From positions 1 through 64,000 of the IMG/VR virus record IMGVR_UViG_651324045_000004: a stretch of DNA of 64,000 nucleotides; one strand, written 5' to 3'. Source of the DNA: a virus. The notes under the pieces are model-generated. The model had not been told where the DNA came from. It saw only the letters and a program-made list of their open reading frames with translations, and did no database searches. Positions 1,057 through 43,264 of this stretch are shown in pieces; the first letter of the stretch is position 1, and each line of letters opens with the position of its first letter. The position numbers and the translations under genes were made by a program.

Positions 1057-2199
1057 TTACAGGTCGCCAAATCCGCCAAGCATTGATGTATCAACGGCTG
1101 CGTCAATTTGCCCCACCAGATACGAAGGGATCTCCGTTTCCTGCGGCGCCACCTGAACGTTGTCGGTGAACAGCCAGCTGTTCATCCACGGCAGCGGATC
1201 GAAAGTGACATCGTCAAACAGAGGGTTGAGATGAAGTCGCTTCATCGCCAGATTTGTGCGGTACTTCACGTACTGTTTCAGGATCTTCGCATTCAGACCA
1301 ATCATCGAGCCGTCTTTGAACAGATAATCAGCCCAACGCATTTCCTGCTCGGCCACGTCGAGCATCGTCTGGTAGACAAACGGCTCTTCTTCTTCGGCGA
1401 TCTGCTTCCACAGCAAACCTTCGCGACCATTTCGCATATTTCGCAACATGCGCTCAGTGCCTTCGCAGTGTAGCGCCTCGTCACGCGCAATCAGTCGCAT
1501 AATCTTCGCGTTGCCTTCCAGCAGCTTTCGCTCGCCAAACGCGAACGTGCAGGCAAAACTGACATAAAAACGAATCGCTTCCAGCGCGTTTACAGACACG
1601 AGAGTACGGAACAGCTGGCGTTGCATCGGGTATGGCTTCCCGTCGAACTCAGACGCGTACAGACGCTCAAATTCATCTTCCCCGAGATGCTCGCGAGCGC
1701 AGACCATTTGATAAAGCTTGTCGTACTCTGCCGATACGCTCGATGCGCGGCTGATAATCTGTTCATCAGTTACGATGCCGTCGAAAATCTCGCTTGGATC
1801 ATCAACCATGCCTCGAATGATATGGGTGTAGCTGCGGCTGTGAATGGTCTCGGAGAAGGCCCAGGTTTCAATCCACGTTTCAAGCTCCGGGATGGAAGCC
1901 AGCGGCAGCAGCGTAACGTTAGGGCTACGGCCTTGAACGCTGTCTAATAGTGTCTGGTAGCGCAGGTTACTGTTGAAGATATGCCGCTCATGATCGGCCA
2001 ATTTCGTCATGTAGTCGATTCGGTCTTGCGAGATATCCACCTCTTCCGGGCGCCAGAAGAATGACAGCTGTTTCTCGATCAGCTTCTCAAATTCACGGTA
2101 TTTCTGGATGTCATACCGTGAAACGTTGACTGAATTGCCGAGGAACATCGGCTCTTTCGTCGCGTCGTTTGCGCCGAGACGGAAAGTTGAATAAGACAT
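1057..2199 (-). CDS. nrdB: Ribonucleotide reductase class Ia small (beta) subunit
   Basis: Diiron/tyrosyl-radical motifs ([18 protein letters not shown]-terminal acidic tail). The conserved RBS CATGTGTTTCCC is at the start. Confidence 0.95.
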
Positions 2200-2318
2200 G
2201 TGTTTCCCTTTGTTATTTAATAAATTCTATGCCACTTCAGCTATCGATAACGCCATGATATGTGGACTTAACAGGCTCTCAAACGGAGAAGAAAGGTGGG
2301 CTTTCGCCCACCTGGTTA

Positions 2319-4658: not shown

Positions 4659-4726
4659 AAGAAAAAAGCCACTAAATGTAGTGGCCTATAGTAATAAGTA
4701 AATGTTTACTTATCAATGAAGCAAAC

Positions 4727-5299
4727 TTAAAAGAATGCTCTCATCATAGAAACAGCTTGGCGGTATTGATCTGTTTCCAGTCCGGTGTAAACAGCAGCCA
4801 ATGCGTCAGCCGGGTGCTCGTTTTTACTGACAATGCTCACTTCACCTTTAACCTTCTTCGTAAACCAGCCAGCATCCGGGTGTTTAGATACTGCCCACTC
4901 AATGATGGTATTTTTGGAGGTGTCTTTTTTTCCGCCGATATGCATTTTGATGTCATTTGGTGTCAACTGAATAATAGGTTTATCGATACACGCCAGAACA
5001 CCGAGGCACAGGCCGTAGGATGTTTGGGCGCGGGAGGACTGGCTACCCACTGGCAGCTCCGCAAACACGATATTTACGCTATCAACGATGGGCTTAATGC
5101 CGCGCCAGATTTCGTTTGCTCGACGCAGATCGTCGCTATTGGTTCGAACAGTTTTTTTTGCTGAAGTTGCCTCTGTTTCAATCAGTTTAATTGACACGTC
5201 GGTCACTTCAGCAGTATCCAGATTCAGCGAACCAGTGACGATCCCAAAGTTACGCAGACTTGGGTCAAACCCTGCGAATTTAATAATTTTATTACTCAT
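4727..5299 (-). CDS. RuvC-like Holliday junction resolvase
   Basis: N-terminal FAGFDPSLRNFGIVTG (RuvC catalytic Asp motif) and C-terminal HPADALAAVYTG (RuvC HxxDA motif). Conserved RBS present. Confidence 0.7.
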   Translation of the reverse strand: MSNKIIKFAGFDPSLRNFGIVTGSLNLDTAEVTDVSIKLIETEATSAKKTVRTNSDDLRRANEIWRGIKPIVDSVNIVFAELPVGSQSSRAQTSYGLCLGVLACIDKPIIQLTPNDIKMHIGGKKDTSKNTIIEWAVSKHPDAGWFTKKVKGEVSIVSKNEHPADALAAVYTGLETDQYRQAVSMMRAFF

Positions 5300-5315
5300 G
5301 TGCTTTCCTTTGTTG

Positions 5316-7920: not shown

Positions 7921-9002
7921 TCAGACGTCCCCGCGCTTTCCGCTTCTAATAGGATTTCGTTGCATAGTGAGTCGAGCTTAGCCAGATCGAAGCCGCCATC
8001 CGTATCGTGGACAACCTTGCAGTAGGCACTGATTGATTCAGAGAGACTGTCGATTTTGCTGGTGGATTCGGTGCTTGCAGTTCCAGCCATCATCGACGCT
8101 TTTTTGATGAGATTTGTCACAACACCCACGGCACCCAGCGTTGCCAGTTGCTCTTTTATTTGCACTGCCTCGGCGTCGTTCTCAATGACTGCGCGATAGC
8201 GAACATAATTGCCGCGAATGTCGTCTTCAGTCACATCGCCTTCCAGAGATACAAACTTCGGTGCCGATGTTTCGTGCTGCGTGAATGAACCGTCTTCCTG
8301 AACCAACATAAACCCGGCCAACGTACCAACGTCGCCCCAATTCTGGTGGGTTAACGCACCGACTGACACGACACCAGGGATTATCTCTTTGTGATTGTGA
8401 TAGTGGCCGGAAAGAACCAGACGGAAGCCGAGTTCCTTCAGATCGTTTGCCTCAATCCCTGCGTCTGGCATTGTCGGTATGGCTTTGTTGATGCCTGTGT
8501 GGATCACAATGTCGTGAATGCCTGGGCCAGCTTTCTCACGAAGAGATTTCATATCCGCCAGCAATTCGGCATGACTGTTACGCCAGCTGATAAAGTGGAC
8601 TGTTACATCATCAATTTTCACGCTCTGTGCCGGGCCACAGACGATATTTACGCCAATCGACTGCAATGATGCCGCCGCATTTGCCGAAAATACTGAGTCA
8701 TTGGTTTCCAGGTCGTGGTTGCCGGCCAGCATCCAGACTTCCAGACCGATTTCGTTAACAATGGTTTTGTACGTTTCAGTGACGAAGTGGAGCACGGAAG
8801 GGGTGATTGAGCCGCGCGTATGGAATGTGTCGCCAGCAACAAACATGTATTTTGCGCCAGAAGCTTTGATCGCTTTTGCCGCCTCGATGGTTGCATCGAG
8901 CTGAATTTTTAAACGAGAATTCAGACCGCTGACGCTGATTGTCGAGAACGCAGACCAGCTATGATAGTGTGGGTCTGAAATCACACCGTATATCGTTTTC
9001 AT
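7917..9002 (-). CDS. SbcD/Mre11-like nuclease (T4 gp47-like)
   Basis: Calcineurin-like phosphoesterase motifs (FVAGDTFH, GNHD, SGHYHN). ATGA start/stop overlap with the SbcC-like gene. Confidence 0.9.
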   Translation of the reverse strand: MKTIYGVISDPHYHSWSAFSTISVSGLNSRLKIQLDATIEAAKAIKASGAKYMFVAGDTFHTRGSITPSVLHFVTETYKTIVNEIGLEVWMLAGNHDLETNDSVFSANAAASLQSIGVNIVCGPAQSVKIDDVTVHFISWRNSHAELLADMKSLREKAGPGIHDIVIHTGINKAIPTMPDAGIEANDLKELGFRLVLSGHYHNHKEIIPGVVSVGALTHQNWGDVGTLAGFMLVQEDGSFTQHETSAPKFVSLEGDVTEDDIRGNYVRYRAVIENDAEAVQIKEQLATLGAVGVVTNLIKKASMMAGTASTESTSKIDSLSESISAYCKVVHDTDGGFDLAKLDSLCNEILLEAESAGTSE

Positions 9003-9210
9003 GTGTTTTCCTGTTGTTGTTTTATTCGATGATAGAGTGGGTTAACAGGCCACCAAGCGACTTCATCAGGTGCATATTAAACACCAACAATAAGTAACCA
9101 CTTATTTATCTAAGAGCATGATACCGAAGTGCGATAGGCTATGCTATATCTTTTGAGAGGGGGAGGTATGGCAAGGAGGTGGGTAGTCTATTGGCTACCC
9201 AGTTTGAATT

Positions 9211-12996: not shown

Positions 12997-13269
12997 TTAG
13001 AACGAGGAAAGACCAAGGATGCGGGTCAAATGTGCCGCATCTTCGTCGCTAATAAAGCGTAAGTCCTCGATATACCAGCATTCGCCGTTACTCCAGCAAA
13101 CACCATCCTCGTCAACCGTAACGGTATCTTCGCTACCATAAAGCGATGGCAGGATCTGATTAGCGATTACCTGCAGGTCATCATCGCTCGTTCCTTCAGG
13201 CACGTCTAAAATAGAATAAGGTGAATATGACGTATTAAGTGATGCGCAAACTTGTAATAAAGCCTTCAT
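12997..13269 (-). CDS. hypothetical acidic protein
   Basis: 90-aa ORF with the conserved RBS CATGTGCTTTCCTTTG at its start and the AAACAAGTTGTT operator-like palindrome upstream. Confidence 0.5.
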   Translation of the reverse strand: MKALLQVCASLNTSYSPYSILDVPEGTSDDDLQVIANQILPSLYGSEDTVTVDEDGVCWSNGECWYIEDLRFISDEDAAHLTRILGLSSF

Positions 13270-13370
13270 GTGCTTTCCTTTGTTGTAATAAACAAGTTGT
13301 TATCTTATGTGTCTAAATGAGGTTGCAAAAATAAGTGACACGGTCACAGAATTATCTTTCTACTCACCTA

Positions 13371-16337: not shown

Positions 16338-16537
16338 TTTGTTTTTCCTGTAATTAGTTGATGGATAATGCTTTTAGCCGCTTTATAGGAAGCGAAGGGG
16401 GTTGCGAACATCAGCACGAAGCCAATCAGGACAGTGATGTCGCTTTTTTGAGAGATGAGATAGGGGATAACTAACCCTACCATCGTCATCGCAAACCCGA
16501 TCGTGACGCAGATTTTCAAATACAGTTTTGTGGTCAT
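16334..16537 (-). CDS. small two-TM membrane protein, putative NfeD-like partner of the SPFH protein (start placed at the internal Met with the conserved RBS)
   Basis: MTTKLYLKICVTIGFAMTMVGLVIPYL...VLIGFVLMFATPF. The conserved CATGTGTTTTCTCTTG lies at 16535. Its stop overlaps the SPFH start (ATGA). Confidence 0.45.
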   Translation of the reverse strand: MTTKLYLKICVTIGFAMTMVGLVIPYLISQKSDITVLIGFVLMFATPFASYKAAKSIIHQLITGKTK

Positions 16538-16659
16538 GTGTTTTCTCTTGTTGAAAAGCTTACACATAATAGATAAGCACTTACTTATCATCAAGCAAAA
16601 CATATTGAACCCAGTTTTTATCCTGCATAACATGGTCTTTTTAGCGGCCGGGAAGACGA

Positions 16660-17402: not shown

Positions 17403-18470
17403 TTACGCGTCAGCTGGCTCTAATTCGTCCTTTGACTTCATCTTCGCCTGAATCGACTTAATAGCCTTCACGATTTCGCCCAAATCCTTCTCGCGGTACA
17501 TATCGACGATCTGGGACTTTGTATACTTCTTATCGCCAATCTCGATGCGCCCGGTGGACGTCTTCGGAATGTATCCCTTATCAAGCATGTACTCTACAAG
17601 CGATTCTACGACGTCCAGACCACGCGAAGGGTCGAAGTAGAAGTTCCATTCACATTTCTGGAACGGTGGCGCCACTTTGTTTTTGACGCACTCTGCTTTA
17701 ACCAACTGACCAACACGATCGCCGCCTTCTTTCAACTGACCGCCACCCAGCTTGATGCGGACGGAAGCGTAGAATTTCGGAGAGTCGCCGCCTGGGGAAG
17801 TGGTAGGGTCTCCGAACATTACGCCCATTTTTGTACGAACTTGGTTCAGGAAAATGAGACAGGCATTGTATTTCTGCGCCCACTTAGCCAGCGTTGGTAG
17901 ATTTGCCGAAGTCGCGCGAGCCAGTGCCGTGTTGTCGTTCATATTCAGCTCGTCTTTCTCTTTGGCCGTGCCATCCGCCATCTTCTCGAACTTCTCGAAC
18001 TTCTGGCGCGGAACCATTGAGGCCAGCGAGTCATAGACAATGACGATGGGCGCTTCAGCTGGGATCAGACTCTCCTTGCGAACCAGAGACAAGATTTGCC
18101 CGGTCAAGTCGATGGCGTCCTCAAAGGTGTCTGGCTGCTTATAGACCCAATTACCTTCATCTTCATCAGATTGAAGTCCCATAACTTCAGCCAGACCAAC
18201 GTCAAAACTGTTTTCATGATCGAGGAATACGGCGATACCTCCGACCTTCTGCGCTGCAATCATCGCGCGGGTTGCGAGGAAAGTTTTGCCTGCAGACGGA
18301 GGTCCAAAAATCTCCACAATACGCCCACAAGGAAGACCGCCTTCCAGATCACCAGAAACGGCTTCGTTTAACGGGGGAAAACCGGTGTCCAGCCATTGCT
18401 CGACTTTCTGGATCTCATCATTTCCGCCGATACGTTTTTTCATGGCTACTGCTAATGGTGACTTTTTCAT
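17403..18470 (-). CDS. RecA/UvsX-family recombinase
   Basis: Walker A GPPSAGKT, RecA core, KNKVAPPF motif. Conserved RBS at the start. Confidence 0.85.
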   Translation of the reverse strand: MKKSPLAVAMKKRIGGNDEIQKVEQWLDTGFPPLNEAVSGDLEGGLPCGRIVEIFGPPSAGKTFLATRAMIAAQKVGGIAVFLDHENSFDVGLAEVMGLQSDEDEGNWVYKQPDTFEDAIDLTGQILSLVRKESLIPAEAPIVIVYDSLASMVPRQKFEKFEKMADGTAKEKDELNMNDNTALARATSANLPTLAKWAQKYNACLIFLNQVRTKMGVMFGDPTTSPGGDSPKFYASVRIKLGGGQLKEGGDRVGQLVKAECVKNKVAPPFQKCEWNFYFDPSRGLDVVESLVEYMLDKGYIPKTSTGRIEIGDKKYTKSQIVDMYREKDLGEIVKAIKSIQAKMKSKDELEPADA

Positions 18471-18486
18471 GTGTTTTCCTTTGGTT

Positions 18487-19766: not shown

Positions 19767-20744
19767 TTACATTGAAAGCGCGTTAAGTTGCGCGTAAATG
19801 TCATCCAGATCTTCGTTTTCCGGCTCAGCTGCTGGCTCGCTTGCTGGCGCTTCTTTTACTTCTTTTACCTCTTTCTCTTCTGGTTCGAATACGGTTTCTT
19901 TCGCGTATTCAACTTCTTTATCCAGTAAAGAGGCTTCGGCAGTTGAGTCATCTACGCCAGTAATGGACATGCCTGGAAGAGATGCAGCTGCTTTGCCGGT
20001 TGGGGTTGGCAGAGCGCCGGCGCTTGAACCCATAGACGCTGGCAGTGCGATTCCGGTCGCGCGAGCAATCATTTTGGAGGTCGCCATCAGTTTTGTCGGA
20101 TCGGTCTGGTTTACAAACTGTTCCAGAGACGGCTGGTTGTCCCAGAACTTAGCCGGAACGGCTGTTTTGTTTTTACGCATCGGTTTGACTTTGTAGTCAG
20201 TATCCAGACCAGATCCGGTGCGAGTAATTTGATACGCGTAACCTTTTTCGCGGCTCAGCGGTTCGCCGATCTCATCGTTCATATCCTGCATAATGGCGTC
20301 CATCAGGTCGTCAAACACGGACATAGGCATATCGATGAGAGAAGTCTTGTCGGTGTCGCTGAAGTCTTCTTTCTGAGACCACATGCCGACAACAGCCATG
20401 CGCGGAGAGGCACGCATATCGTCAATGACTTTTTCCATGGCTTTGTTGCCTTTGTACTTCGCTTTAGCTTCCATAACCATTTCGCACATTTCGCACGGCT
20501 TATCATGGGTATGCTGAAAGCACAGATGAGCGCTGTATACGTCCTTCCCATCTTCGCCTTTAGATTTGGCATAGTGAATGCCGTACTTGTGGGAGAATGG
20601 AATATTGTCAGGGTCGTCTTTGTTCAGGATGATGCGAACGTAGTTTTCGCCTGGTTGCATCTTTTGCAGATCGTTCCCGCGATTGCCGCGTGCGTTTTTC
20701 GCAACTTCTTGGCTTTTCTTCAGAAGGTTCATTAAAGCGGACAT
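19767..20744 (-). CDS. gp32-like single-stranded DNA-binding protein (zinc-binding, acidic C-terminal tail)
   Basis: His-Cys3-type cluster HLCFQHTHDKPCEMCE reminiscent of the T4 gp32 zinc site. Acidic C-terminus EPENEDLDDIYAQLNAL. Conserved RBS present. Confidence 0.6.
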   Translation of the reverse strand: MSALMNLLKKSQEVAKNARGNRGNDLQKMQPGENYVRIILNKDDPDNIPFSHKYGIHYAKSKGEDGKDVYSAHLCFQHTHDKPCEMCEMVMEAKAKYKGNKAMEKVIDDMRASPRMAVVGMWSQKEDFSDTDKTSLIDMPMSVFDDLMDAIMQDMNDEIGEPLSREKGYAYQITRTGSGLDTDYKVKPMRKNKTAVPAKFWDNQPSLEQFVNQTDPTKLMATSKMIARATGIALPASMGSSAGALPTPTGKAAASLPGMSITGVDDSTAEASLLDKEVEYAKETVFEPEEKEVKEVKEAPASEPAAEPENEDLDDIYAQLNALSM

Positions 20745-20810
20745 GTGTTTTCCTTTATTGTTAATGGCTTTTATTGCACTTGGTTATGATAGATAAGCGA
20801 TCACTTATTA

Positions 20811-23042: not shown

Positions 23043-23110
23043 GTTTTCCTTTGTCATTAAACAAGTTGTTTTCAGAAACTAAAAAACAACTTGTTTTCAC
23101 ATTTTACTTA

Positions 23111-25483
23111 TTACTTAGAGGTGTCAAATTCAATAATGTCGGCATCTTCTTTCATGGCTTGCTCGACAGTGCGCTTCTTACCATCAGAGCACGGATGAAG
23201 CGCGGCGCGATGAACAGTGACAATCTGGCCGTCGTCAGTCTGGACTTCCAACCAACCAAGCTGCGCACGATCTGAAAAGTCGGCGCCAATCTTTTTCATC
23301 TTCTCGATGTCTTTTTTACCAATCGCCTTCCTTACCATATCTGCTTCCGACAGAGAGAAGCCGGCGAGGATCTGCGACGCTTTCATGATTTGTTCCTGAT
23401 AGACCAAAACCCCGTTGGTTTCTTTGGTCAATTCGTCAAGGCTTGGGTGAAGTGAGTGAGCGTCCTCATAACCACGCGCAACGCTGACGTAGGTGTCCAT
23501 CATGCCGGACTGCATTGGGCCTGGGCGATATAGCGCGGTAGTTGCGACGGCCATTTCAAACGACATTGGTTTGATGCCGCTTCCAAGGTTTTTAAGCAGG
23601 TTTCTCATGCCGCCAGACTCGAACTGGAACACGCCAGTTGTTTCACCCAACGCCATACCCTCAAGGACGCGTTTATCATCGAGAGGGATTGCGTCGAGGT
23701 TAACGTCGATCCCCTCGTTCTCTTTGATGTAGCGTTTAGCGAGAGCCAGTAGATCGAGCGTAGCCAGCCCTAACACGTCCAGCTTGATAAGCCCCATTGA
23801 TTCACAGAAACGCTTGTCAAACGCGATACAGCGCACCCCGTTGCGTAACTCGACTGGTGTTCGCTCAGTCAGTGGTACGCCAGAAACGATGACACCCGCG
23901 GCGTGCTTACCATAGCTGCGCATCAGTGACTGGAGTTTGCACGCGGCGTCGAATGCTTCCGGGTTTGCTTTCGCGTATTTGTCGAGGGCGCCCAGCTGCT
24001 CGCGCGTCTCTTCGAGAGTTAATCCCTCATCATCGAATGGCTTCAGCTGCTTAGATACCGCCATATCTTCCGTTGACACGCCGTAGATACGCGCTGTGTC
24101 TCGGAGTGCCGACGCCATACCCAGATAAGAGAAGTTAGGAATGCCGGCCACGTATTTTTCGCCGTAGTGCTCTTCGAGATATTCAAGTACCCGAGGTCGT
24201 TGCGCCTGACTGAAGTCCAGATCCGCGTCAGGCAAGTCCAGACGTTCAGGGTTGATGAAACGCTCAAACAGGAGACCGTGGCGTAGCGGGTCGATGTTGG
24301 TGATCCCAATCGCCCACGCAACAAGTGAACCGGCGGACGATCCGCGACCCGGCCCGACCGGGATATCCTGTTTACGCGCCCATGACAGTAGATTTTCAAC
24401 CATCAGGAAGTAGCCGCAAAATCCCAGCTTTTTCAGAACACTCAACTCATAACGTAAACGGTTGATGTAAACCTGATACTGCTCTGCTGGTGGCTTCCAA
24501 CCAAATTCAAGCGTTGTTAAACGACGCTTCAATCCTTCTGCCGCCATTCGCGTCAACGTATCACCCTCATCTTCCGCCATAACTGGCAGACTGACCGGCA
24601 TCTCATGCCAGCGCCAGCTGCACGCCGCAATGATTTCGTCCTGAGTCTCGTTAACCATCGCGGAACTAATACCCTCGATACCCATGCGTTTCGAGAATTC
24701 CATCAAGCGAACCAGCAAATGCTTGCGGTTCTGGATAGAGTTGTCGCGCTGGTGTGGGATGTGAAAACGATATGGCTGATCCGTTTTGATGTTATTGATA
24801 ACCATATGCGCAATGTCGCGCAGGTCTGCGTCCTCTTCTTTCTCGTAATAAGCTGGATAGAACGCAACAGGGGCGATTTTAAGCGCATTAGCCACCTTCA
24901 TCGCCTTCATGTTCAACTGATCGTAGAGAGGCGTAGCAATCGGATACACAACGCTGTAGAAGTTGTCACGCCCACCAACCTCCAGCAATTTAGTCAGGAT
25001 TTTAACGAAGTCCTGCCGATGAAATATGCTATCGCGATCAGACGTCAGTAGAAGGATGTTGCCCTTTGAATACGTTTCGGCCAGCTGCTCCAACGAGATG
25101 CGCGGGAAAAAGTGAAACTGCTCGCGGCGGTTGCCCAACGTCATCAGCTCACAGAGATCTTTGTATCCTTCATCGTTCTTTATCAGCGCGGTGAAGCTGT
25201 ACAGGCGCCCAAGTTTGCATACCGGGATCTCTGAACCTTCCTCTTTGGCTTTTCTGACCGCTGCTTCATAAAAAGGATTGTCACTAATGACCAGACGGAC
25301 GCCGCAAATAACAGCCAGGTCATCGCCAGCCGACTGCTGCAGCGGGATGATTGAAGCCAGACTCATTGTGTCTGCGCTGATAATGGCTGAATAACCTAAC
25401 TCTTTCGCAGCCTTCGCTACGCGGCTTGCTTTCAGCGCCGATTCACCAAGAGAAAAATCGGTGCGTACCATTAATGCCTTCAT
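23111..25483 (-). CDS. dnaE: DNA polymerase III alpha (DnaE-type) N-terminal part: PHP domain plus palm/thumb/fingers
   Basis: PHP N-terminus (MKALMVRTDFSLGESAL), polymerase core (GFCGYFLMVENLLSWARKQDIPVGPGRGSSAGSLVAWAIGIT). It ends with TAA 65 bp before the C-terminal part. Confidence 0.85.
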   Translation of the reverse strand: MKALMVRTDFSLGESALKASRVAKAAKELGYSAIISADTMSLASIIPLQQSAGDDLAVICGVRLVISDNPFYEAAVRKAKEEGSEIPVCKLGRLYSFTALIKNDEGYKDLCELMTLGNRREQFHFFPRISLEQLAETYSKGNILLLTSDRDSIFHRQDFVKILTKLLEVGGRDNFYSVVYPIATPLYDQLNMKAMKVANALKIAPVAFYPAYYEKEEDADLRDIAHMVINNIKTDQPYRFHIPHQRDNSIQNRKHLLVRLMEFSKRMGIEGISSAMVNETQDEIIAACSWRWHEMPVSLPVMAEDEGDTLTRMAAEGLKRRLTTLEFGWKPPAEQYQVYINRLRYELSVLKKLGFCGYFLMVENLLSWARKQDIPVGPGRGSSAGSLVAWAIGITNIDPLRHGLLFERFINPERLDLPDADLDFSQAQRPRVLEYLEEHYGEKYVAGIPNFSYLGMASALRDTARIYGVSTEDMAVSKQLKPFDDEGLTLEETREQLGALDKYAKANPEAFDAACKLQSLMRSYGKHAAGVIVSGVPLTERTPVELRNGVRCIAFDKRFCESMGLIKLDVLGLATLDLLALAKRYIKENEGIDVNLDAIPLDDKRVLEGMALGETTGVFQFESGGMRNLLKNLGSGIKPMSFEMAVATTALYRPGPMQSGMMDTYVSVARGYEDAHSLHPSLDELTKETNGVLVYQEQIMKASQILAGFSLSEADMVRKAIGKKDIEKMKKIGADFSDRAQLGWLEVQTDDGQIVTVHRAALHPCSDGKKRTVEQAMKEDADIIEFDTSK

Positions 25484-25674
25484 GTGCTTTCCTTCGTGGT
25501 TCTTTTTTTATTTTTAACGCTGTCAATCGGGAATCCGATAAACTTCCCAAACATAGCCTCAATGTTTTTACGGGCTTCATCATGACAGCGAGATCTGTCA
25601 CCACATCGGGCGCAGATCTCGCTTTTTTCTGAGGCTGTCAATGCTGAGCCAAAGCAACCTTTATTCATCACCAA
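25480..25674 (-). CDS. small Cys-containing hypothetical protein
   Basis: 64-aa ORF (CARCGDRSRCH). Its stop overlaps the dnaE start. Confidence 0.3.
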   Translation of the reverse strand: MVMNKGCFGSALTASEKSEICARCGDRSRCHDEARKNIEAMFGKFIGFPIDSVKNKKRTTKEST

Positions 25675-26911
25675 AGACGCGCTGCGCTATCTCGGTTGCG
25701 GATACCGCACTGGTGGACGGTAATTTATTGATGAAAGACTTCGTAACGCCTTTCTTGAAGTTTTTGTGCGCCATCCCGATCATTGCTGCATTGCGCAGTT
25801 CACGCGGCCCGATGGGTTGGCTAATATTTCCTGCCTCATACCCGCTACGGATTCGGGTTGCGAAATCGATAAGCATGGTTGCGTACACTTTCGGCAAACC
25901 CATTTTCTCAAGCATCGCGGACTCATGAGACCTATCCATGTACTTGACGTGTGAGACGATACCGAAACGAGAGAAGTTCGCTGCGTTCTGGATATTCGTA
26001 CCCTGGTACAATCCAGTTTCATCACCGGAGCCATTGGTGTTGCCGGTTCCGATGAAAGCGAATCGTTTATGTGGCTCGACGTAGCGCCACTCCGGGGTTG
26101 CTTCTTTGATGATCAGTGGTTCACCTTCCAGCACTGGCTGGTAAACGCCAAGGATTTGCGGGAATGCGAAATCATATTCATCGGCCAGATAAACCCACCC
26201 GTTACGCATTGCACTTGCCAGAAGACCTGGCTCGAAATAAGTTGCACCACCACGCACAAGAATCTGGCCGCAGATGTGCGACTCTTCAGTGGACGCGGTG
26301 TGCTGCGCACGGATGATCGGTCGGTTTAGTCGAGCGCAAAGCTGAGTTGGTAGCGTACTCTTGCCGGTTCCTGCGTGACCCCACAGATATCCAGGGATAC
26401 GCATCTCGATCATCATAAGCACGTCTTTAAGCAGCTCGATGTCGCCGAACACATAGTCAGGGTTTACTTTTGGCACAAACTCCGGGAATGGCTTATTGAT
26501 GTTTACGGTGATGCGCAGCGGCTCGCCAGATGCCGTCTTCAGTAAGTCAGCATCGAGACCGAGTATTTCATGTACTGCGACCTTTTCGACCATATAGTCT
26601 TCGAAGCCGGCGTACCCAACGTGAACTGCAGCCGGTTCTTCTTTCTTTTTGGCCTGATGTTCTTTTAGACGTTTGGCGGCAGCGGCGGACATAGTCGGCG
26701 CTTCAGGAAATGCAGCAACATAGATTTTCATCAATTCATTAGGCGTCTTGTCTTCGTGTTCTTTCGGGATGCCAGAGCATTTTTTGCCAATAAAATGAGA
26801 ACCGACATGATGGGTCTCGCCGCCACACCATTTGCACGAAATAGGCGTTTCTTCGATCTCGCGAGATTTTTCTTGTTCAGCGACTGTTTTGTTCTGCATT
26901 TCGACCGACAT
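25661..26911 (-). CDS. CobS-like AAA+ (MoxR-family) ATPase
   Basis: Walker A GHAGTGKST, Walker B VYLADEYDF, and an N-terminal CxxC/HH zinc-like segment. Paired with the downstream vWA protein. Confidence 0.75.
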   Translation of the reverse strand: MSVEMQNKTVAEQEKSREIEETPISCKWCGGETHHVGSHFIGKKCSGIPKEHEDKTPNELMKIYVAAFPEAPTMSAAAAKRLKEHQAKKKEEPAAVHVGYAGFEDYMVEKVAVHEILGLDADLLKTASGEPLRITVNINKPFPEFVPKVNPDYVFGDIELLKDVLMMIEMRIPGYLWGHAGTGKSTLPTQLCARLNRPIIRAQHTASTEESHICGQILVRGGATYFEPGLLASAMRNGWVYLADEYDFAFPQILGVYQPVLEGEPLIIKEATPEWRYVEPHKRFAFIGTGNTNGSGDETGLYQGTNIQNAANFSRFGIVSHVKYMDRSHESAMLEKMGLPKVYATMLIDFATRIRSGYEAGNISQPIGPRELRNAAMIGMAHKNFKKGVTKSFINKLPSTSAVSATEIAQRVFGDE

Positions 26912-27009
26912 GTGTTTTCCTTTTGAAGTAGTTCTGATGTGTCAATGATACTTATATATAACAGGCAAGGAAATAAGTATTTACTTATCATCCTTGCCCA
27001 AAAAAACGG

Positions 27010-34681: not shown

Positions 34682-35293
34682 TCAGTTCTTACCGGCGTTA
34701 ACCACAACACCTGCACGACCGGCATCAGCTTTGGCGATTTCGAGGCGGGTTTCGCGCTCTGCGGTAATCTGTCCACGCAGCTCTGCAACTTGCGCTTCCA
34801 GATCGGAGATGCGTTGGTTTTTAGCAGTAGCCTGGGCTTTGTGCTCCGCCAGCTCAACTTTATGCTGGGATACCAGATCGCGGTTCTCAGCGCCAAATTT
34901 AGCAGCAGCAGCCTGATAACCAGCTTCACGCGCTTCGGATACTGCGTACTCGTTGTCGGTTTTGGCCGCGACCAGGTCGGAGTTTAGTGCATCCAGATCA
35001 GCGTGAGTGATAACGGCATAACCGCGTGCTTTCATCAGCTCGGCCAGAACCTTGTCTTCGTTTTCGATTACACGCAGACGCAGCTGGGCTTTGGATTCGC
35101 GCTCGGAGGCAGCGATCTGGTTTTCGATATCAGCCAACTGGCCCTGCTTAAATTCGATTTCTTCAGTCAGAGTTACGGTTGACTGAGACAGAGCGGCCAG
35201 ATCAGCGAACAGCTTTTGGCCGTCGGCAACAACTTTAACCAGTGCTTTAGTAGAACGCTCAGCTACGGTAATAATCTTTTTGACTTCAGACAT
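34682..35293 (-). CDS. hypothetical coiled-coil protein
   Basis: 203 aa, A/E/Q-rich heptad-like sequence. Conserved RBS at the start. Confidence 0.5.
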   Translation of the reverse strand: MSEVKKIITVAERSTKALVKVVADGQKLFADLAALSQSTVTLTEEIEFKQGQLADIENQIAASERESKAQLRLRVIENEDKVLAELMKARGYAVITHADLDALNSDLVAAKTDNEYAVSEAREAGYQAAAAKFGAENRDLVSQHKVELAEHKAQATAKNQRISDLEAQVAELRGQITAERETRLEIAKADAGRAGVVVNAGKN

Positions 35294-35493
35294 GTGTTTT
35301 CTCTTTGTAGTTTATTTGTATGGTTCGCAGCGTTACTTTTCTGACCGTACAGTCTGAATTTCACGCTACTTGCACTTTACGTTAGTGCCAGACGAGGCTT
35401 GTGGCTCGGGCCTAATGGCTGTTTATGCGGTTGATGGCCGCACCATTTTGGCCTCGACACTAAGAGATGTATGGAATCACATCATCTTAGATT

Positions 35494-35569: not shown

Positions 35570-35605
35570 TTCAATCTGAAGGACTCTCGAAAAAGCCCTT
35601 TAGGT

Positions 35606-36094: not shown

Positions 36095-36125
36095 AGAGTG
36101 ACGCGGGAATCGAACCCGCAATCCT
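36095..36125 (-). other. Isolated tRNA 3'-half-like element: perfect T-arm GCGGG-TTCGATT-CCCGC plus acceptor-like 3' strand. No matching 5' half was found.
   Basis: Seen directly. It resembles the tRNA 3' fragment typical of att sites or tRNA remnants. Confidence 0.3.
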
Positions 36126-36534
36126 CAGCCTCAAATATGCTATTTGCATTTCACACATCAGGCATCGGAATAAACCTTTAAGTCACCAGACTTCGCTCGC
36201 CGACGCTATGCACAGCTAATCGACAAACTAAAAGGCCATCACCCATGTTCGCAGAGACTCGCCGTCTGACTCTATCGCGTGGTTAAGGGTACGTGGGTCA
36301 GTATCGCCTATTCACCAGCAAGTCTCTGCTATCCATTAGTAATCACACCGGATCAGTGCGCCGAATTTTTTAATGAGGAATCGGAAGACCTCACTGACTT
36401 ATAGGCTGTTAAGCCGCCATCAGAACTACATCATCGTTTGCATTTACTTTGTTGGTCAGTTTCTAAAAAACCGCAAAGCCGCTTAACGTCGAAAACGAGT
36501 TAATCTTAGTGAAAACTTATAAATAAGTAAACAC

Positions 36535-38662: not shown

Positions 38663-39132
38663 TATTGAAGCTCTCCCGCAACAACGACAGGCTCATCCTG
38701 AGAATCGAGGATGTCGCACTGTTCCCTTTGCTCTACCATCGGTAGATCACTCGGTTTTGGTTCGTAGGCATCAAGAAAATCGACGGCGTCCATGGAGAAA
38801 ATCTCATTGTCTTTGTTTTTGAAAATGACAGTCAAAGGGAAACCGGGCTTGGCGGTAAGCACGTTGCTAAGGCACACCATCTCGTAGACGTCGTCAGAGT
38901 CCTTAGCGGCCCACAGCTTACATTCAGGAACGATCGGGCGGAAAACGATGTTGCGGTTAATCTGGAAGCTGTCGAACCAGAGTGTTCTTTCACCTTCGTT
39001 GACAATGTCAATGCTCACGGCAATACCATGAGACGATGCTGCCTTTGGCAAGCAATTAATCCATTGCGGAACGTCCGCGGTAGTGTAGATCATCTGGCAT
39101 ACTTGGCCTACTTGTGGCTCGAACTGACTCAT
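38662..39132 (-). CDS. hypothetical protein
   Basis: 156 aa. Conserved RBS at the start. Confidence 0.5.
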   Translation of the reverse strand: MSQFEPQVGQVCQMIYTTADVPQWINCLPKAASSHGIAVSIDIVNEGERTLWFDSFQINRNIVFRPIVPECKLWAAKDSDDVYEMVCLSNVLTAKPGFPLTVIFKNKDNEIFSMDAVDFLDAYEPKPSDLPMVEQREQCDILDSQDEPVVVAGELQ

Positions 39133-39584
39133 GTGTTTTCCTCTGTTTTATTAACTTCTGCGTTTACCGCTTCGGCGTAAATGTCGACGAGAACGGTTGG
39201 TTTTTTGATTTCCGGCTTTGGCGTCACTCTTGAGCCAAACGTCGCAGCACGCTTGTTGCGCGTTGCGCTTTTAGCTGCACGACTCTCAATTTCCTCTCTC
39301 AGCTTACGCATCTCTTCGAGGCCATCGATGAAGTAAATCCGCTCGCCTGTTTTAACTTCTTCCAACATCATCTTGACCGCACGACACTTGCCGGCACGAA
39401 TGGCTGTCGCGCACGAATCGAATGAACCAGGCGGGAGTCGATTCTCTTTAAATGCCAGTACGGTGTGCTGACACACCGTATAGGAAGAGCGCGTCGGCGA
39501 TCCGTTGATTAGAAGTTCCTCGCACAGCATCGAATAGCTATTACTGCCGCTAATTGACGGAAATTTGCTAAAGTTGGTTTTCAT
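39129..39584 (-). CDS. hypothetical protein
   Basis: 151 aa. Confidence 0.4.
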   Translation of the reverse strand: MKTNFSKFPSISGSNSYSMLCEELLINGSPTRSSYTVCQHTVLAFKENRLPPGSFDSCATAIRAGKCRAVKMMLEEVKTGERIYFIDGLEEMRKLREEIESRAAKSATRNKRAATFGSRVTPKPEIKKPTVLVDIYAEAVNAEVNKTEENT

Positions 39585-39668: not shown

Positions 39669-40586
39669 TTACCAAGAACCCCAAAGAGGGTTTTCCGCGA
39701 CGAGGCTGTGTACTTCTGCATGTTTTATCGCTTCACGGACGTGAGCGAGAGCGTAGCTTTTGCCTTCTGAGAGCATGGCAGCTTTGTCATAACCAAGACG
39801 GGTAATCATTTCACCAGGTCTTGCGAAAAGACCGCCGAAGCACTTCGACACGGCCTTAACCGACTCAATCTCATCCATTTCCCCGTCGTATTCGCTGAAG
39901 AGCTGCATTTCAATGCTTTCATTGAAACGGTTTTTTGCCAGAGACGACTTCTGGTCTAGGATCGCGTCAATGATGCCGCCAGGTGCTTTAAGTGAAAAGG
40001 CACGAGAATAGCCTGGCGTCTCGAATGCGCTCGAATGCACGGCAGACAAAGCCATTGCCCCGGTCATTGATACATCATCTACAACTTTAGGGATGTCCGG
40101 CATTGAAACAACTTCTGTCGTCATCGTAGCCCTAAGTGAGCGCAGGACGCGATCAAACTCTGGAGCCTGCAGGACGCCGCTTTCCAGCATATAGTTAGCG
40201 AAGTTTTTTACCGCTGCAGGGCCGACGTATGATTCATAATCCTCGGCTTTTATCATTATCGACTTCTCGTAGAGTGACATCGCCGGCCGCGGGCTTCCTG
40301 CATAAAAAATACCTTGGAACACCTTCGCCTTCAGATAGTCCTCGGCGACGTCAGTAAGGTTGACGATGACGAACAGCTCGAAGTTCCGATCAGCCGTTAA
40401 AGTTGACGAAATGTAAATCCAAGGCTCGTTAGGGGTGGATATGGTGACAGGCATCTTAATGCTGATGCGTTGATTCGCCTTTTCACAAGCCTCTTTAACT
40501 ATCCGTTCTACATCTCCATCTTTAAAGATGTGCGCCGCTTCGCTAATGGCTTTTCTGACGGCTTCGTCGATGCTCTTGATATACAT
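39669..40586 (-). CDS. hypothetical protein
   Basis: 305 aa. Confidence 0.5.
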   Translation of the reverse strand: MYIKSIDEAVRKAISEAAHIFKDGDVERIVKEACEKANQRISIKMPVTISTPNEPWIYISSTLTADRNFELFVIVNLTDVAEDYLKAKVFQGIFYAGSPRPAMSLYEKSIMIKAEDYESYVGPAAVKNFANYMLESGVLQAPEFDRVLRSLRATMTTEVVSMPDIPKVVDDVSMTGAMALSAVHSSAFETPGYSRAFSLKAPGGIIDAILDQKSSLAKNRFNESIEMQLFSEYDGEMDEIESVKAVSKCFGGLFARPGEMITRLGYDKAAMLSEGKSYALAHVREAIKHAEVHSLVAENPLWGSW

Positions 40587-40648
40587 GTGCTCTCCTTTTT
40601 TTATGAATCTTATACAAAATGATAAGTAAGTGCTTATCTTTTTTACGG

Positions 40649-41812
40649 TCAGAGAAGTGCTTTAATACCGTGTAGTTTCGCCATCATTTCGAGCATCTTG
40701 GTGTATGGCTTCGCTCGATAGTAGGCTTTCAGAACCTGCTCGATTGTCGCATCGCCTGGGTCTAAGCCTTCCTCTCCGAGACACGCGATTTTCACACGTA
40801 ACCCGATGCCGGCTAATCGCTTGGCTGCACCAAACGTGTTGTGTATTGCCTGTTTTTCGGAGTCCCACATCATGACGACCGTCTCTAATCCCTTTTGCTT
40901 CAATCTCAAGAATGCGCCAAGCTGATCCTCGGTTTCACCATCCAGCGTGCCGGACAAGTGCATACCGAACGTTCCTATCGGCTCCACATACTCTCTCAGC
41001 GATTCCTCAGCAAAAAGAGCACGCTTTATGCCCATAACGTCAAAAGCGCCCTCAGAAACGATTACAGTGCGCTTCCCGATGGCATTGTGTCCGTTGTAGA
41101 GGAACTTGCCAGATGCCGGCAGTGATATTGGAAAGAGATAACGACGATCTGACTCACCAGTAACGTCGCGCCCCTGAAACGTCCGCATTTTGCCGTCCAA
41201 ATCGTAAATGGGGATCAAGATGCGCATATCGAAAGACTGGACGTGCGGTCGTCCATTTCGCTCATCGAGATAAACGTGCGTACCCTCGACGCAGTACCGC
41301 AGATCAAAGTAGGTCGCCAGCTCCGGGGAGATGTCACGATCAACAAGATACGTTGGAAGTTGGCCTTCAATTGGCAGCTGATAATGTGGAGGCAGGATAA
41401 CTTCAGACGTCAGCTCAACATCCGACTTTAGCTCAATCTCTTCTTCTTTTGGGCGCCAGCCTTGCTGCATCAGTTCGTTGCGGATGTAACGCTGCAATCC
41501 GCGCCATGATTCGCCGGTATGGTATTTGATGAAGTTCAGCTTGTTAAACTGCACCTCCTCCGGGTGATCACCGGCGAAACACTTGCCAAGGCCAGTAGTC
41601 AGGTTGAAGTAAACCTTCCACTTACTACTTTTGCAGCACGGACATTCACGGATGTTGACTTCACGCCCCTTTGAAGTCCTTGAGCCACGACGATACGAGA
41701 TCCCCTCTGTATCAAGCCACTGCTCAAAGTCGAATTCTTCCATTAGTTCTTTTAATTCTGACATTTGATAAACCTTGCATTTAGCCGGCCATAGATTAAT
41801 ATGGCAGTACAT
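40649..41812 (-). CDS. DnaG-like DNA primase (zinc-binding domain plus TOPRIM)
   Basis: CPCC...C zinc ribbon near the N-terminus. TOPRIM acidic motifs (VIVSEGAFDVMG, MMWDSE). Conserved RBS at the start. Confidence 0.8.
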   Translation of the reverse strand: MYCHINLWPAKCKVYQMSELKELMEEFDFEQWLDTEGISYRRGSRTSKGREVNIRECPCCKSSKWKVYFNLTTGLGKCFAGDHPEEVQFNKLNFIKYHTGESWRGLQRYIRNELMQQGWRPKEEEIELKSDVELTSEVILPPHYQLPIEGQLPTYLVDRDISPELATYFDLRYCVEGTHVYLDERNGRPHVQSFDMRILIPIYDLDGKMRTFQGRDVTGESDRRYLFPISLPASGKFLYNGHNAIGKRTVIVSEGAFDVMGIKRALFAEESLREYVEPIGTFGMHLSGTLDGETEDQLGAFLRLKQKGLETVVMMWDSEKQAIHNTFGAAKRLAGIGLRVKIACLGEEGLDPGDATIEQVLKAYYRAKPYTKMLEMMAKLHGIKALL

Positions 41813-41902
41813 GTGTTTTCTTTTGTGGTTTTATTAGCAAAAGAAAGCTTGAATTTCTGTATTGAAATTAAGGCGTTCCGCTTTGGAGCGCCTTCATTTT
41901 TC

Positions 41903-43264
41903 CTACATAACGTCAATGATTCGCTTAATAAATCGCATCTGTTCCAGATCCTGAAGCACTCGCAGACTTACCCCGCCTTTCTGGTTACGAGAACCAGCAA
42001 AATACAGACGCGCCTCGCCTTTAGCTTCTTCCTCTTCGGTCTTGTTGATTGAGATAATCAGGTCACAGATACGCACCTTCTCGATGTTGTCCGCGGCGTG
42101 CATCATCGTCGCAACTTCAGAGGAACCACCTTCACGGTTGGTCTGGGACGCTGTCATACCCGCCACATCGTGCTTATCCATGACAGCACGTAAGTCGGTG
42201 TAGATATCCTTCACATCATTGCGCGGGTCTTTGGTTGGCGTGGTGGCACGCATCAGATCCGCATAGTCGACAATGACCATGTCAGGTATCATGCCATTCA
42301 CTTTCATGTTGCTGAGTAAGCGGTCAAGGTCTGCAGGTGAAAATGTATTGGCGCGACGCTCAACAATCCACATGCTTCCGATTTTCCCATCAGCACCCAC
42401 AGAGCGAAGCTTTTCCGCAATATCATCGCGGCGCTCAATAAGTTTTGACATTTCTGTTTCGGAGATACGGGCGTCCCAGCGATCTGACAGGATGTCTTTA
42501 TGTACCTCCAGTGAGACATACAGGACGTTGTAGCCTTTCAGCGTGGCATTGATGCCGAACTCACCCATGGCCGTCGATTTGCCCGATTTTGCGAAGCCCA
42601 TGAACAGAACCAGTTCTTTACGCCCCCAGCCTTTTTGGTGAAGCATTTTGTCCAGTAACGGAATGCCTGTTGTTACGCTGTTAGGCACGAAGTCATCGGA
42701 CGCCTCGTATTCGCGACGCTCATGTCGTTCGCCGGAACGTTCATAGAAGCTGTACACGTCATCCATATCGGATGCGCCGACCATGTCCACCTTCTGCATG
42801 ACCTGCATCGCACGCTCAAACTCGCCTTTCTCCTTCAGCTCCGCCGCCTTGATGAACGCATCATCAAAAGCAACCGAACGCGCAAAAGTCACGACGCGGT
42901 CAATCATGTAGCCGGTGTCTTCCAGCTTCTCGGTCAAAATACGCTTCATCGCATTAACGACTTCAGGCACGAACTCTTCTCGAATCTTTCCGCGCTTCTT
43001 CGCCTCCTTAATCATGTCGATGATGAACTCTTTCGACGGGGAGCTTTTGTACGAGCGGAAATAGCCGGCCACAATGCTGACCAGGTATCCATTTGCCTTG
43101 TTGGAGAATTGCTCAGGGAGAACCAGATCGCCGGCTCTGATCAGAAACTCTCTGTCTCGGCAGTAGTACGCAGTCAGGCGATCTTCAAACCCAGCGTCAA
43201 ATTCTTCCGATAGCGGTCGTCCTGTGTGAACAGGCGTCTCAAGCGCTGAAGAGGTAGTGGTCAT
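41903..43264 (-). CDS. DnaB-family replicative DNA helicase
   Basis: Walker A GFAKSGKST, Walker B MVIVDYADLM, and a DnaB N-terminal domain. Conserved RBS and AAACAACTTGTTT palindrome upstream. Confidence 0.9.
   Translation of the reverse strand: MTTTSSALETPVHTGRPLSEEFDAGFEDRLTAYYCRDREFLIRAGDLVLPEQFSNKANGYLVSIVAGYFRSYKSSPSKEFIIDMIKEAKKRGKIREEFVPEVVNAMKRILTEKLEDTGYMIDRVVTFARSVAFDDAFIKAAELKEKGEFERAMQVMQKVDMVGASDMDDVYSFYERSGERHERREYEASDDFVPNSVTTGIPLLDKMLHQKGWGRKELVLFMGFAKSGKSTAMGEFGINATLKGYNVLYVSLEVHKDILSDRWDARISETEMSKLIERRDDIAEKLRSVGADGKIGSMWIVERRANTFSPADLDRLLSNMKVNGMIPDMVIVDYADLMRATTPTKDPRNDVKDIYTDLRAVMDKHDVAGMTASQTNREGGSSEVATMMHAADNIEKVRICDLIISINKTEEEEAKGEARLYFAGSRNQKGGVSLRVLQDLEQMRFIKRIIDVM

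Follow-up and report, generated by a model that had tools for sequence, protein, structure and literature searches.

The early region of an SSU5-like Klebsiella phage-plasmid contains a discrete class of translation starts that share a near-identical block of sequence locked to the AUG; the class consists essentially of DNA replication, recombination and nucleotide genes, its initiation regions are predicted to be unusually accessible, and its core is conserved in relatives and has spread to further genes in the Klebsiella lineage. We read this block, with about even confidence, as an RNA-level translation-initiation module specific to the SSU5-like family, which would act by remaining unstructured and loading ribosomes in the manner of ACA enhancers. 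The window, the 64,000-nt stretch of DNA analysed here, is part of such an element: its gene identities match those annotated in 99.5-99.6%-identical plasmids and in phage SSU5, and Pfam and PHROGs concur on them, assigning the single-stranded DNA-binding protein (SSB) as gp32-like and the 'resolvase' as RuvC-like. Genome-wide counts were taken from a complete relative that is 99.6% identical to the window and has 119 gene starts. SSU5-like phage-plasmids, which include pMT1 and pHCM2 and number ~385 related plasmids in PLSDB, are frequent in clinical Klebsiella, E. coli, Salmonella and Yersinia; to our knowledge, almost nothing is known of how they control their lytic genes.

Within the window, AAAGGAAARCACATG occurs 6 times without mismatch and 15 times when up to two mismatches are allowed, where dinucleotide-preserving shuffles gave an expectation of 0.00 and 0.39, respectively (maximum 2). 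All 15 lie on the minus strand, each closes with the start ATG of a long open reading frame (ORF) (Table 1), and a chance origin is rejected. An earlier note on this DNA had reported a start-site block recurring on the minus strand; the recurrence is confirmed and is stronger than was claimed, and all 14 sites then listed are real, although the start of the second dnaE part is at 23040 and not at 23042 as given there. A fifteenth site, absent from that list, opens a 305-aa ORF at 40586. The same note described a conserved 13-nt block of Shine-Dalgarno (SD) sequence and spacer, which is correct as to conservation but understates the length: the block spans −18 to +4. No Rfam family was found in the window at the gathering threshold, and full-text literature searches with the motif strings, and with SSU5 and ribosome-binding site, returned only unrelated primer matches. 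Among the matches listed in an exact-motif scan of IMG/VR, those outside SSU5-like contigs were mainly single and scattered, and were judged to be at about chance level.

Table 1. Start motifs in the window and the gene of the gp32-family protein (coordinates of the whole stretch).
Feature	Position	Strand	Remarks
nrdB start motif AAAGGGAAACACATG	2197..2211	(-)	ATG 2199; nrdB by annotation; SSU5 nrdB keeps motif
RuvC-like resolvase start motif, exact	5297..5311	(-)	Within 16-nt gap after TAA of upstream gene
sbcD start motif ACAGGAAAACACATG	9000..9014	(-)	Heads translationally coupled sbcD-sbcC-232aa block
90-aa ORF start motif, exact	13267..13281	(-)	P1 palindrome upstream
67-aa membrane protein start motif, weak SD (AAGAGAAAACACATG)	16535..16549	(-)	Heads SPFH pair
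recA start motif, exact	18468..18482	(-)	16-nt gap; gained in Klebsiella lineage only
gp32-family single-strand binding protein gene	19767..20744	(-)	Pfam PF08804, E = 3e-39
gp32-like SSB gene start motif, exact	20742..20756	(-)	
Split dnaE, C-terminal part, start motif, exact	23038..23052	(-)	ATG 23040
dnaE N-terminal part start motif GAAGGAAAGCACATG	25481..25495	(-)	
cobS-like AAA ATPase gene start motif, exact	26909..26923	(-)	
203-aa coiled-coil ORF start motif, weak SD (AAGAGAAAACACATG)	35291..35305	(-)	
156-aa ORF start motif AGAGGAAAACACATG	39130..39144	(-)	Inside last codons of upstream gene (ATGA overlap); heads ligase block
305-aa ORF start motif AAAGGAGAGCACATG	40584..40598	(-)	New relative to the earlier list
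Primase gene upstream-ATG motif, no SD (AAAAGAAAACACATG)	41810..41824	(-)	
DnaB-like helicase gene start motif TAAGGAAAGCACATG	43262..43276	(-)	P1 palindrome upstream

In the complete relative, 22 of the 119 starts, about one gene in five, bear the motif. Their leave-one-out motif scores run from +13 to +27 bits whereas all other genes score −5 or below, with none in between, making this a discrete class of starts. The block is G-depleted and A/C-rich, and its identity ends abruptly at both limits; it is laid out as an A/C-rich, G-free tract (−18 to −10), a modest AAGGA SD, an AAA(A/G) spacer, an invariant CAC (−3 to −1) that directly abuts the AUG, and A or U at +4. Across the 22 sites, G stands at −9 in 18 and at −8 in 20, A at −7 and at −6 in 21 each, and C at −1 in all 22, matching the invariant C at −3; AAA tracts occupy −12 to −10 and −7 to −5. 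G is excluded from −17 to −13 and from +4, a position at which T is over-represented (p = 1e-4) and neither G nor C occurs (p = 1e-3). The register with the ATG is exact in 22/22 sites, on the coding strand only, and the block is anchored on the AUG, not on the SD, whose distance differs between relatives. The other 97 annotated starts have a weak G preference at −11 to −8 and no information in the spacer, so that the motif is not, as the earlier note had allowed it might prove to be, the generic SD of every gene: the conservation of the class lies in the spacer and the CAC.

Two simple accounts, the genome's ordinary Shine-Dalgarno and a DNA-level signal such as a promoter or protein-binding site, draw on the AAGGA that forms part of the block and on the capacity of A/T-rich upstream sequence to mimic promoters; we regard both as scarcely credible. 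SD hybridisation in the class is −4.1 kcal/mol, no stronger than the −4.4/−5.4 kcal/mol of other genes, whose SDs are heterogeneous and come without spacer conservation. Within the module the SD takes the form GGA, is reduced to GAG alone at three sites and is missing at one (primase), while spacer and CAC are kept throughout, and an ordinary SD was rejected as the cause of the conservation on these grounds. Inspection of the motif found no pairing with the 3' tail of 16S rRNA beyond AAGGA. A promoter-type element is ruled out by the exact, zero-offset ATG register, the restriction to the coding strand, the 16-nt gaps and the one site that lies inside coding sequence; sigma70-like promoter matches are, moreover, not enriched over shuffles. 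Promoter- and operator-like palindromes do occur but are separate and further upstream: there are two such elements, TAAGTAAnnnCTTA, which sits inside promoter spacers, and AAGAAAACAAsTTGTTTA, both candidate operators for the element's HTH and Rha-type regulators, and through them the motif genes are probably also co-ordinated transcriptionally.

All 22 motif genes fall within the early/DNA-metabolism region, and none is among the virion, tail or lysis genes (virion genes, 0/36; p = 2e-4); the set takes in the helicase, the primase, both DnaE parts, SSB, RecA, SbcD, NrdB, the ligase block and the resolvase. An upstream gap of ≥16 nt precedes 21 of the 22 compared with 55 of 96 other genes (p = 4e-4), and many motif genes head translationally coupled blocks. 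At the ligase block, the motif site is followed by the 156-aa gene in Klebsiella; in SSU5 it drives instead a mini-ORF of 12 codons whose terminal TAATG lies at the ligase start, as one would expect if the motif were a ribosome entry site. In the annotations of relatives, both the primase gene and the cobS-like gene begin downstream of the motif ATG; in SSU5, as here, the primase gene has the SD-less form of the motif, together with a conserved N-terminal extension.

The initiation regions of the class (translation-initiation regions, TIRs) are predicted to be the most open in the genome, with a median opening energy over −18 to +12 of 3.8 kcal/mol compared with 8.0-9.2 kcal/mol for other genes (p < 1e-4), and the summed ΔG is ~4 kcal/mol more favourable for them. 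From −25 to −1 they are 57% A, 14% G and 11% T, where G reaches 26% in the others, and they contain 2.77 ACA triplets per TIR against 0.51 (p = 3e-13), or still 1.14 against 0.40 once the fixed ACA at −2 to +1 is subtracted. In Salmonella, experiments have proven that ACA motifs close to the SD enhance translation, with G as the most harmful substitution; such C/A-rich enhancers act in the yifK, dppA and gltI mRNAs and are also target sites of the small RNA GcvB (Yang, Figueroa-Bossi & Bossi 2014, PMC3879156), and GGA, an A-rich tract and ACA recur in ligands of ribosomal protein S1 (PMC1702504). The motif resembles these enhancers in being single-stranded, G-poor and ACA-bearing beside a modest SD in an enterobacterial host, with an ACA density 5x that of other genes. 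It differs from them in that the published enhancers vary in position and sequence, whereas here a near-identical block of ~20 nt is fixed to the AUG in 22 genes, and predicted GcvB pairing is not clearly above background.

On these grounds we infer that the motif raises initiation through S1/ACA-type enhancer contacts. The module would offer incoming ribosomes a single-stranded, ACA-rich stretch of about one S1/30S footprint, unusually free of structure, where they could load de novo and efficiently on genes that follow an intergenic gap and are often the first in a chain of translationally coupled genes; output would then be set by the strength of the embedded SD, in the order GGA > GAG > none (primase).

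The core has outlasted considerable protein divergence. AAACAC-AUG is retained at orthologous genes of SSU5, pMT1, Kluyvera and Buttiauxella whose products share just 35-66% identity; ACACATG at sbcD is kept in all four, and at the SSU5 helicase gene the motif is exact. When the window is compared with the L013 lineage, positions −15 to −1 are 92% identical and −40 to −16 only 67% (p = 4e-7), a pattern that points to purifying selection on −15 to −1. The class has also grown: recA, the SSB gene and others, about nine further genes, acquired the motif in the Klebsiella lineage only. In relatives the recA and SSB junctions are alignable A/C-rich spacers that seem to have reached the consensus by drift, through point changes. 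That about nine genes of this lineage reached the exact sequence looks like selection for a specific sequence.

This history bears on whether the motif might be a by-product of recombination, a 'linker' at module boundaries that was copied between genes or phages and has no function beyond that of an adequate ribosome-binding site. Motif genes do lie at block boundaries, dnaE is split by a 70-nt insert that bears the motif along with two copies of another repeat, and the switch between the SSU5 mini-ORF and the 156-aa gene occurs downstream of one site. A copied linker nevertheless fits poorly with identity that stops at about −18 and +4 between unrelated flanks, with no longer copied segment, and with a core far better conserved than its flanks over long divergence; identity of 18-22 nt is also short for homologous exchange, and the recA and SSB junctions appear to have changed by point substitutions. 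We consider this origin very unlikely.

Several features sit less easily with the cis-acting module. ACA enhancers are reported to be position-independent, yet the ACAC here is fixed to the AUG; many A/C-rich sequences could provide accessibility, yet the class is discrete, with a gap from −5 to +13 bits; and the Klebsiella lineage converged on one exact sequence. Nor is CAC a general optimum for enterobacterial ribosomes, which we ruled out because CAC at −3 to −1 was found at 0 of 65 annotated E. coli starts, including those of ribosomal proteins and EF-Tu, and at 0 of 116 candidate starts in the phage-plasmid P1.

A translational operator is a serious rival, which we entertain tentatively: a sequence-specific RNA-binding factor, either a protein or a small RNA of the phage-plasmid or the host, would read ~AAA(R)CACAUG(A/U) and, like RegA, co-ordinately repress or activate ~20 DNA-metabolism mRNAs. 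Such a factor would account for a class without intermediates, for an AUG-locked core that reaches +4 and stays intact while the SD degenerates or vanishes, for the functional coherence of the genes and the lack of virion members, for a family-specific motif that neither P1 nor highly expressed E. coli genes possess, and for lineage-specific expansion by point changes. The precedent is T4 RegA, which represses ~30 early/replication mRNAs by way of sites that take in the AUG, carry an A-tract on its 5' side and lack structure (PMC3014915). The likeness extends to the many early DNA-metabolism genes, to a site that overlaps the AUG behind a 5' A-tract with no secondary structure, and to inclusion of the regulator's own gene class; the T4 sites, by contrast, are A+U-rich with a loose consensus, whereas those here are A+C-rich, U-poor and near-invariant over a 15-mer.

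Against an operator stands the outcome of our search for its factor. The earlier note had proposed either an efficient TIR or an operator on RegA or gp32 lines, and had suggested looking for an RNA-binding repressor among the ORFs of unknown function. The first branch gains indirect support from the low opening energy, the ordinary SD and the ACA enrichment, so that the proposal is upheld in part; the search returned no member of the RegA (PF01818), RegB, CsrA, Hfq, FinO/ProQ, Com or MazF families among 50 hypothetical ORFs by Pfam and 20 of these by PHROGs. The ORFs screened were hypotheticals from the window and the remaining early region, and remote homologues could escape such scans; three small basic proteins had no match in a PDB sequence search. 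A plasmid-encoded antisense RNA acting in trans was rejected, since the best complement to the motif elsewhere on the plasmid reached only 14/18 with G-U pairs allowed and lay in coding or palindrome sequence. Host GcvB was set aside as repressor on an only marginal difference in pairing: against R1 of E. coli GcvB, the median duplex energy is −14.45 kcal/mol for motif genes and −12.9 kcal/mol for others (p = 0.014), and many non-motif genes pair better.

The only extended consensus of SD plus A-rich spacer across many phage early genes that we know to be well described is the target of T4 RegB and S1. It consists of 11 nt, GGAGRAYARAA, in early-gene TIRs (Durand et al. 2006, PMC1702504), and our motif shares with it the GGA, an A-rich single-stranded tract, a pyrimidine at position 7 (here the C at −3) and an extent of about one S1 footprint. 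The two part at position 4 (−6), which is A in 21/22 of our sites, whereas RegB prefers G, rarely U, and cuts GGAA poorly, and at position 9 (−1), which is C in 22/22 here and never C in RegB sites. By the T4 rules the motif sites would be RegB-resistant, and no match to the RegB endoribonuclease was obtained in the Pfam and PHROGs scans.

We also weighed a special case of the operator, in which SSB in excess over single-stranded DNA would coat whichever cellular RNAs have least structure, namely the motif TIRs, including its own, and so feed back on the replication and recombination set. By Pfam the SSB is a genuine member of the gp32 family, with PF08804 matching residues 32-227 of its 325 aa (E = 3.1e-39); its own gene bears the exact motif in an unstructured leader, and the TIRs it would coat are the most open in the genome. 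Of the encoded proteins it alone belongs to a family whose members are known to repress translation via unstructured TIR RNA, and it would be a candidate trans factor. In T4, gp32 acts on its own mRNA as a repressor, by way of a tract that is free of structure and overlaps the ribosome-binding site (PMC3014915). It requires in addition an RNA pseudoknot ~67 nt upstream, 5' of its operator, which nucleates cooperative binding. No nucleating pseudoknot is evident here: a predicted sigma70-like promoter (20814-20786) would leave a leader of ~35 nt, and the fold from −117 to +14 has z = −0.9 with a folding tool that does not model pseudoknots. The T4 tract is, in addition, A+U-rich, with UUAAA repeats over the ribosome-binding site, and unique to gene 32, whereas the motif TIRs are A+C-rich and U-poor and the motif is common to 21 other genes. 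Because gp32 binding is sequence-independent, it lacks the specificity needed for CAC, and the invariant CAC is left unexplained. We think SSB feedback improbable.

Whichever way it is read, the motif provides a simple sequence criterion that separates a DNA-metabolism translational class from the remainder of the genome, and it corrects start codons, as for the primase and cobS-like genes in the annotations of relatives. It also offers a compact, SD-independent-looking TIR that is a candidate portable expression part. Were the motif read by a dedicated factor, the system would amount to a regulon of the RegA type that uses an unrelated protein and has an operator with sharp limits. It is conceivable, though we would put it below an even chance, that the motif marks a new translational regulon of SSU5-like phage-plasmids, in which a factor dissimilar to RegA, RegB, CsrA and Hfq, which could be a conserved small unknown early protein or the divergent gp32-like SSB, reads AAA(R)CACAUG(A/U) on ~20 mRNAs, switching the lytic replication/recombination set post-transcriptionally, and that this regulon was recently enlarged in the Klebsiella lineage.

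In the window, AAAGGAAARCACATG occurs six times exactly and 15 times at ≤2 mismatches, on the minus strand in all cases, where shuffles give 0.39; the ATG at the end of every match is the start of a real gene. All 14 sites listed in an earlier note proved correct, and a fifteenth lies at 40586. Because a 10-kb piece of the window shares 99.6% identity with K. pneumoniae plasmids of about 108 kb, for example NZ_CP027801.1, and about 72% with Salmonella phage SSU5, the window is most of an SSU5-like phage-plasmid, with an early/DNA-metabolism region at about 1-45 kb and lysis and tail genes at about 46-64 kb. We viewed the rest of the genome through a complete close relative (loci L002-L004); the comparison set was SSU5 (L005, L006) together with the recA neighbourhoods of Yersinia pestis pMT1, Kluyvera, Buttiauxella, two IMG/VR lineages and a Photobacterium relative.

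Across the whole genome, the motif class accounts for 22 of 119 annotated starts, and CAC fills −3 to −1 at 23 starts when about 2 are expected (p ≈ 1e-18). Information in the class genes spans −18 to +4, from a G-free A/C stretch (−17 to −13) through AAA, GG, AAA, A/G, CAC and ATG to A or T at +4; at this last position T is over-represented (10/22 versus 8/97 other genes), while G or C is found in none of the 22 and in 30 of the 97. With leave-one-out PWMs the class genes score +13 to +27 bits, and since a PWM built from −18 to −4 by itself still gives its top 20 places to CAC genes, the two halves of the motif co-occur. The earlier note had asked whether the motif is simply the generic Shine-Dalgarno (SD) sequence of every gene; the remaining 97 starts carry a weak G preference at −11 to −8 and nothing more, and all score ≤ −5 bits. 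The motif genes are a discrete class, not the tail of an SD distribution, and this discreteness favours a reading in which the motif is an operator, recognised by a sequence-specific RNA-binding factor on ~20 mRNAs.

The class takes in the helicase and primase genes, the two parts of the split dnaE, and the genes for a gp32-like SSB, RecA, a RuvC-like resolvase, SbcD (which heads SbcC) and NrdB; it further includes a ligase-containing block, an NfeD/SPFH pair, a cobS-like ATPase and some nine early ORFs of no assigned function. The motif is found in 0 of 36 virion, tail and lysis genes (p = 2e-4) and is absent from genes of plasmid maintenance and lysogeny (repA, parA/B, integrase, and the HTH and Rha regulators). 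The dnaE gene is a single 1172-aa gene in SSU5, Kluyvera and pMT1-type relatives and is split in the L015 lineage too; the spacer of the window's split gene holds two AAACAAsTTGTTT palindrome copies as well as the motif. Elsewhere in the window, the adjoining Acb2/Tad1 and Tad2-like genes are anti-defence genes, and the long tail ORF has a counterpart annotated as two overlapping CDSs in NZ_CP027801.1. The 1.2-kb non-coding gap looks like a decayed tRNA array and contains several T-arm-like remnants (ggttcgattcc); ARAGORN calls a tRNA-Gln(CUG) at 35495-35569 (minus), which Rfam does not confirm, and at the corresponding position SSU5 carries a tRNA-Asn.

Features of the window outside the motif sites
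Feature	Position	Strand	Details
Split dnaE	21880-25483	minus	ORFs of 790 aa and 386 aa, 70-nt spacer between
Acb2/Tad1 hairpin-domain protein	32914-33156	minus	PF24729, E = 1.5e-16
Tad2-like protein	33156-33674	minus	PF11195, E = 4.5e-26
Non-coding gap	35294-36534		1.2 kb
Tail protein ORF, DUF1983-type	48674-62107	minus	4477 aa, single
(GA)TAAGTAAnnnCTTA(TC) palindrome	95, 4712, 9104, 16587, 20807, 26987, 34521, 36537, 44070, also 40623, 47067	minus
ATAAGAAAACAA(C/G)TTGTTTA palindrome	13302, 15444, 23071, 23096, 43296, 45461	minus

An intergenic gap of ≥16 nt precedes 21 of the 22 class genes, and the genes that follow many of them begin at ATGA- or TAATG-type overlaps with ordinary SDs. The offset between motif and ATG is zero in all cases, a strict registration that also favours an operator; the recA and resolvase copies sit within 16-nt gaps straight after a TAA, and the copy at 39132 falls within the final codons of the gene before it. 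The orthologous SSU5 copy (L005 39590-39631) drives a mini-ORF of 12 codons, MKTPERPMEVKH, with a stop that overlaps the start codon of the ligase gene (TAATG), just as a ribosome entry site behaves; the Klebsiella element has a 156-aa gene at this place instead. With these arrangements, the motif acts at the RNA or translation level. It also bears on annotation: in OW968253.1 and NZ_CP027801.1 the primase starts 16-18 codons downstream of the motif ATG at 41812, and in one of the two the cobS-like gene starts 4 codons downstream of that at 26911. As the primase N-terminal extension is kept at protein level in SSU5, the motif ATG is probably the true primase start.

Promoter- and operator-like elements are separate from the motif and further upstream, where two other repeat families, both palindromic, probably provide transcriptional co-ordination. 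In sigma70-like TTGAyr/TAtnAT promoters, among them those at 99-70, 4716-4688, 16594-16566 and 20814-20786, the 17-18-nt spacer is taken up by a TAAGTAAnnnCTTA palindrome; palindromes of this family precede the motif genes sbcD, NfeD-like, SSB and cobS, the non-motif genes nrdA and phoH, and others; these are likely repressor-controlled early promoters. Members of the second family, AAGAAAACAAsTTGTTTA, are found 8-25 nt before the SD of the helicase, parA-like gene, dnaE C-part (twice) and two ORFs; the palindrome has many SSU5 copies (L005/L006), conserved there at other genes, and is a candidate operator or activator site. Strong terminator-like hairpins with T-runs stand directly before the start codons of two early genes lacking the motif, nrdA (4687-4666, minus) and the 5'-3' exonuclease (19749-19730, minus), where read-through or attenuation control is possible.

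Against a lineage with 90% RecA identity, −15 to −1 is 92% identical and −40 to −16 only 67% (p = 4e-7). The AAACAC-ATG core is kept at the sbcD, 90-aa ORF, NfeD-like, dnaE, cobS, nrdB, primase and helicase orthologues of SSU5, pMT1, Kluyvera and Buttiauxella, where protein identity is only 35-66% and both the SD sequence and the SD-CAC distance vary; by our own pairing of start contexts, about 11 of the 13 CACATG starts in SSU5 have a Klebsiella motif site as their orthologue. Such conservation points to selection on the motif. The recA, SSB and resolvase genes and about six others have an ordinary translation-initiation region (TIR) in those relatives and the motif solely in the Klebsiella lineage. 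Because the recA junctions are alignable across relatives, with A/C-rich spacers, the motif there would have been gained by point changes, suggesting convergence, which includes loss of a G-starting Ala codon at +4 (MAK→MKK). In an annotation-free count of −3 to −1 triplets, CAC ranks 1 or 2 in enterobacterial SSU5-like elements and 4 in the L015 lineage, and is absent in the Photobacterium relative; its count is zero both for 50 kb of phage-plasmid P1 and for the E. coli ribosomal-protein/EF-Tu region, so that the motif is family-specific and not a host-wide optimum. Both its lineage-specific spread and its absence from host genes again favour an operator.

The accessibility data pull the other way, toward a purely cis-acting element. 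The SD-anti-SD energy of the class (−4.1 kcal/mol) compares with −4.4 for other early and −5.4 for late genes, three motif sites have just GAG as their SD, and the primase motif lacks an SD in Klebsiella and SSU5 alike. Predicted opening of −18 to +12 costs the class a median of 3.8 kcal/mol versus 8.0-9.2 for other genes (p < 1e-4), so a simple thermodynamic sum favours the class by about 4 kcal/mol; by these predictions its SD is ordinary and its accessibility is not. A makes up 57% of the class TIRs and G only 14%, and each has 2.77 ACA triplets versus 0.51 in other genes. In Salmonella, ACA triplets next to the SD have been demonstrated to enhance translation, G being the worst substitution, and the enhancers are said to work independently of position (PMC3879156). 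For an SD-plus-spacer consensus common to phage early genes, the closest precedent is the 11-nt T4 RegB/S1 site, GGAGRAYARAA; those who described it point out that S1 ligands repeatedly contain GGA, A-rich tracts and ACA. Our motif differs at positions 4 and 9, where it has A and C respectively, each of them disfavoured there for RegB (PMC1702504). T4 RegA sites overlap the AUG and are unstructured, A+U-rich and loosely defined, with a 5' A-tract (PMC3014915). The motif resembles all three in several respects and is a member of none; our full-text literature searches turned up no account of it.

Searches for a trans factor likewise pull to cis. No RegA, RegB, CsrA, Hfq, Com or MazF family match was found in 50 hypothetical ORFs (Pfam) or 20 (PHROGs), nor did three basic small proteins match PDB sequences; Rfam gave no hit in the window, no anti-motif sequence was found elsewhere on the plasmid, and host GcvB R1 pairs only marginally better with the class than with other genes. 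The SSB, which truly belongs to the gp32 family (PF08804, E = 3e-39), has an exact motif at its own gene, and a folding tool without a pseudoknot model indicated no pseudoknot-type nucleation site in its predicted leader of ~35 nt; we consider it unlikely to be the operator's factor. Counting that small share, an operator read by a specific factor is possible, at rather less than an even chance. The motif is real, discrete, under selection and family-specific, and we give an even chance that it would serve this family as a purely cis-acting, open, ACA-type ribosome-loading module.
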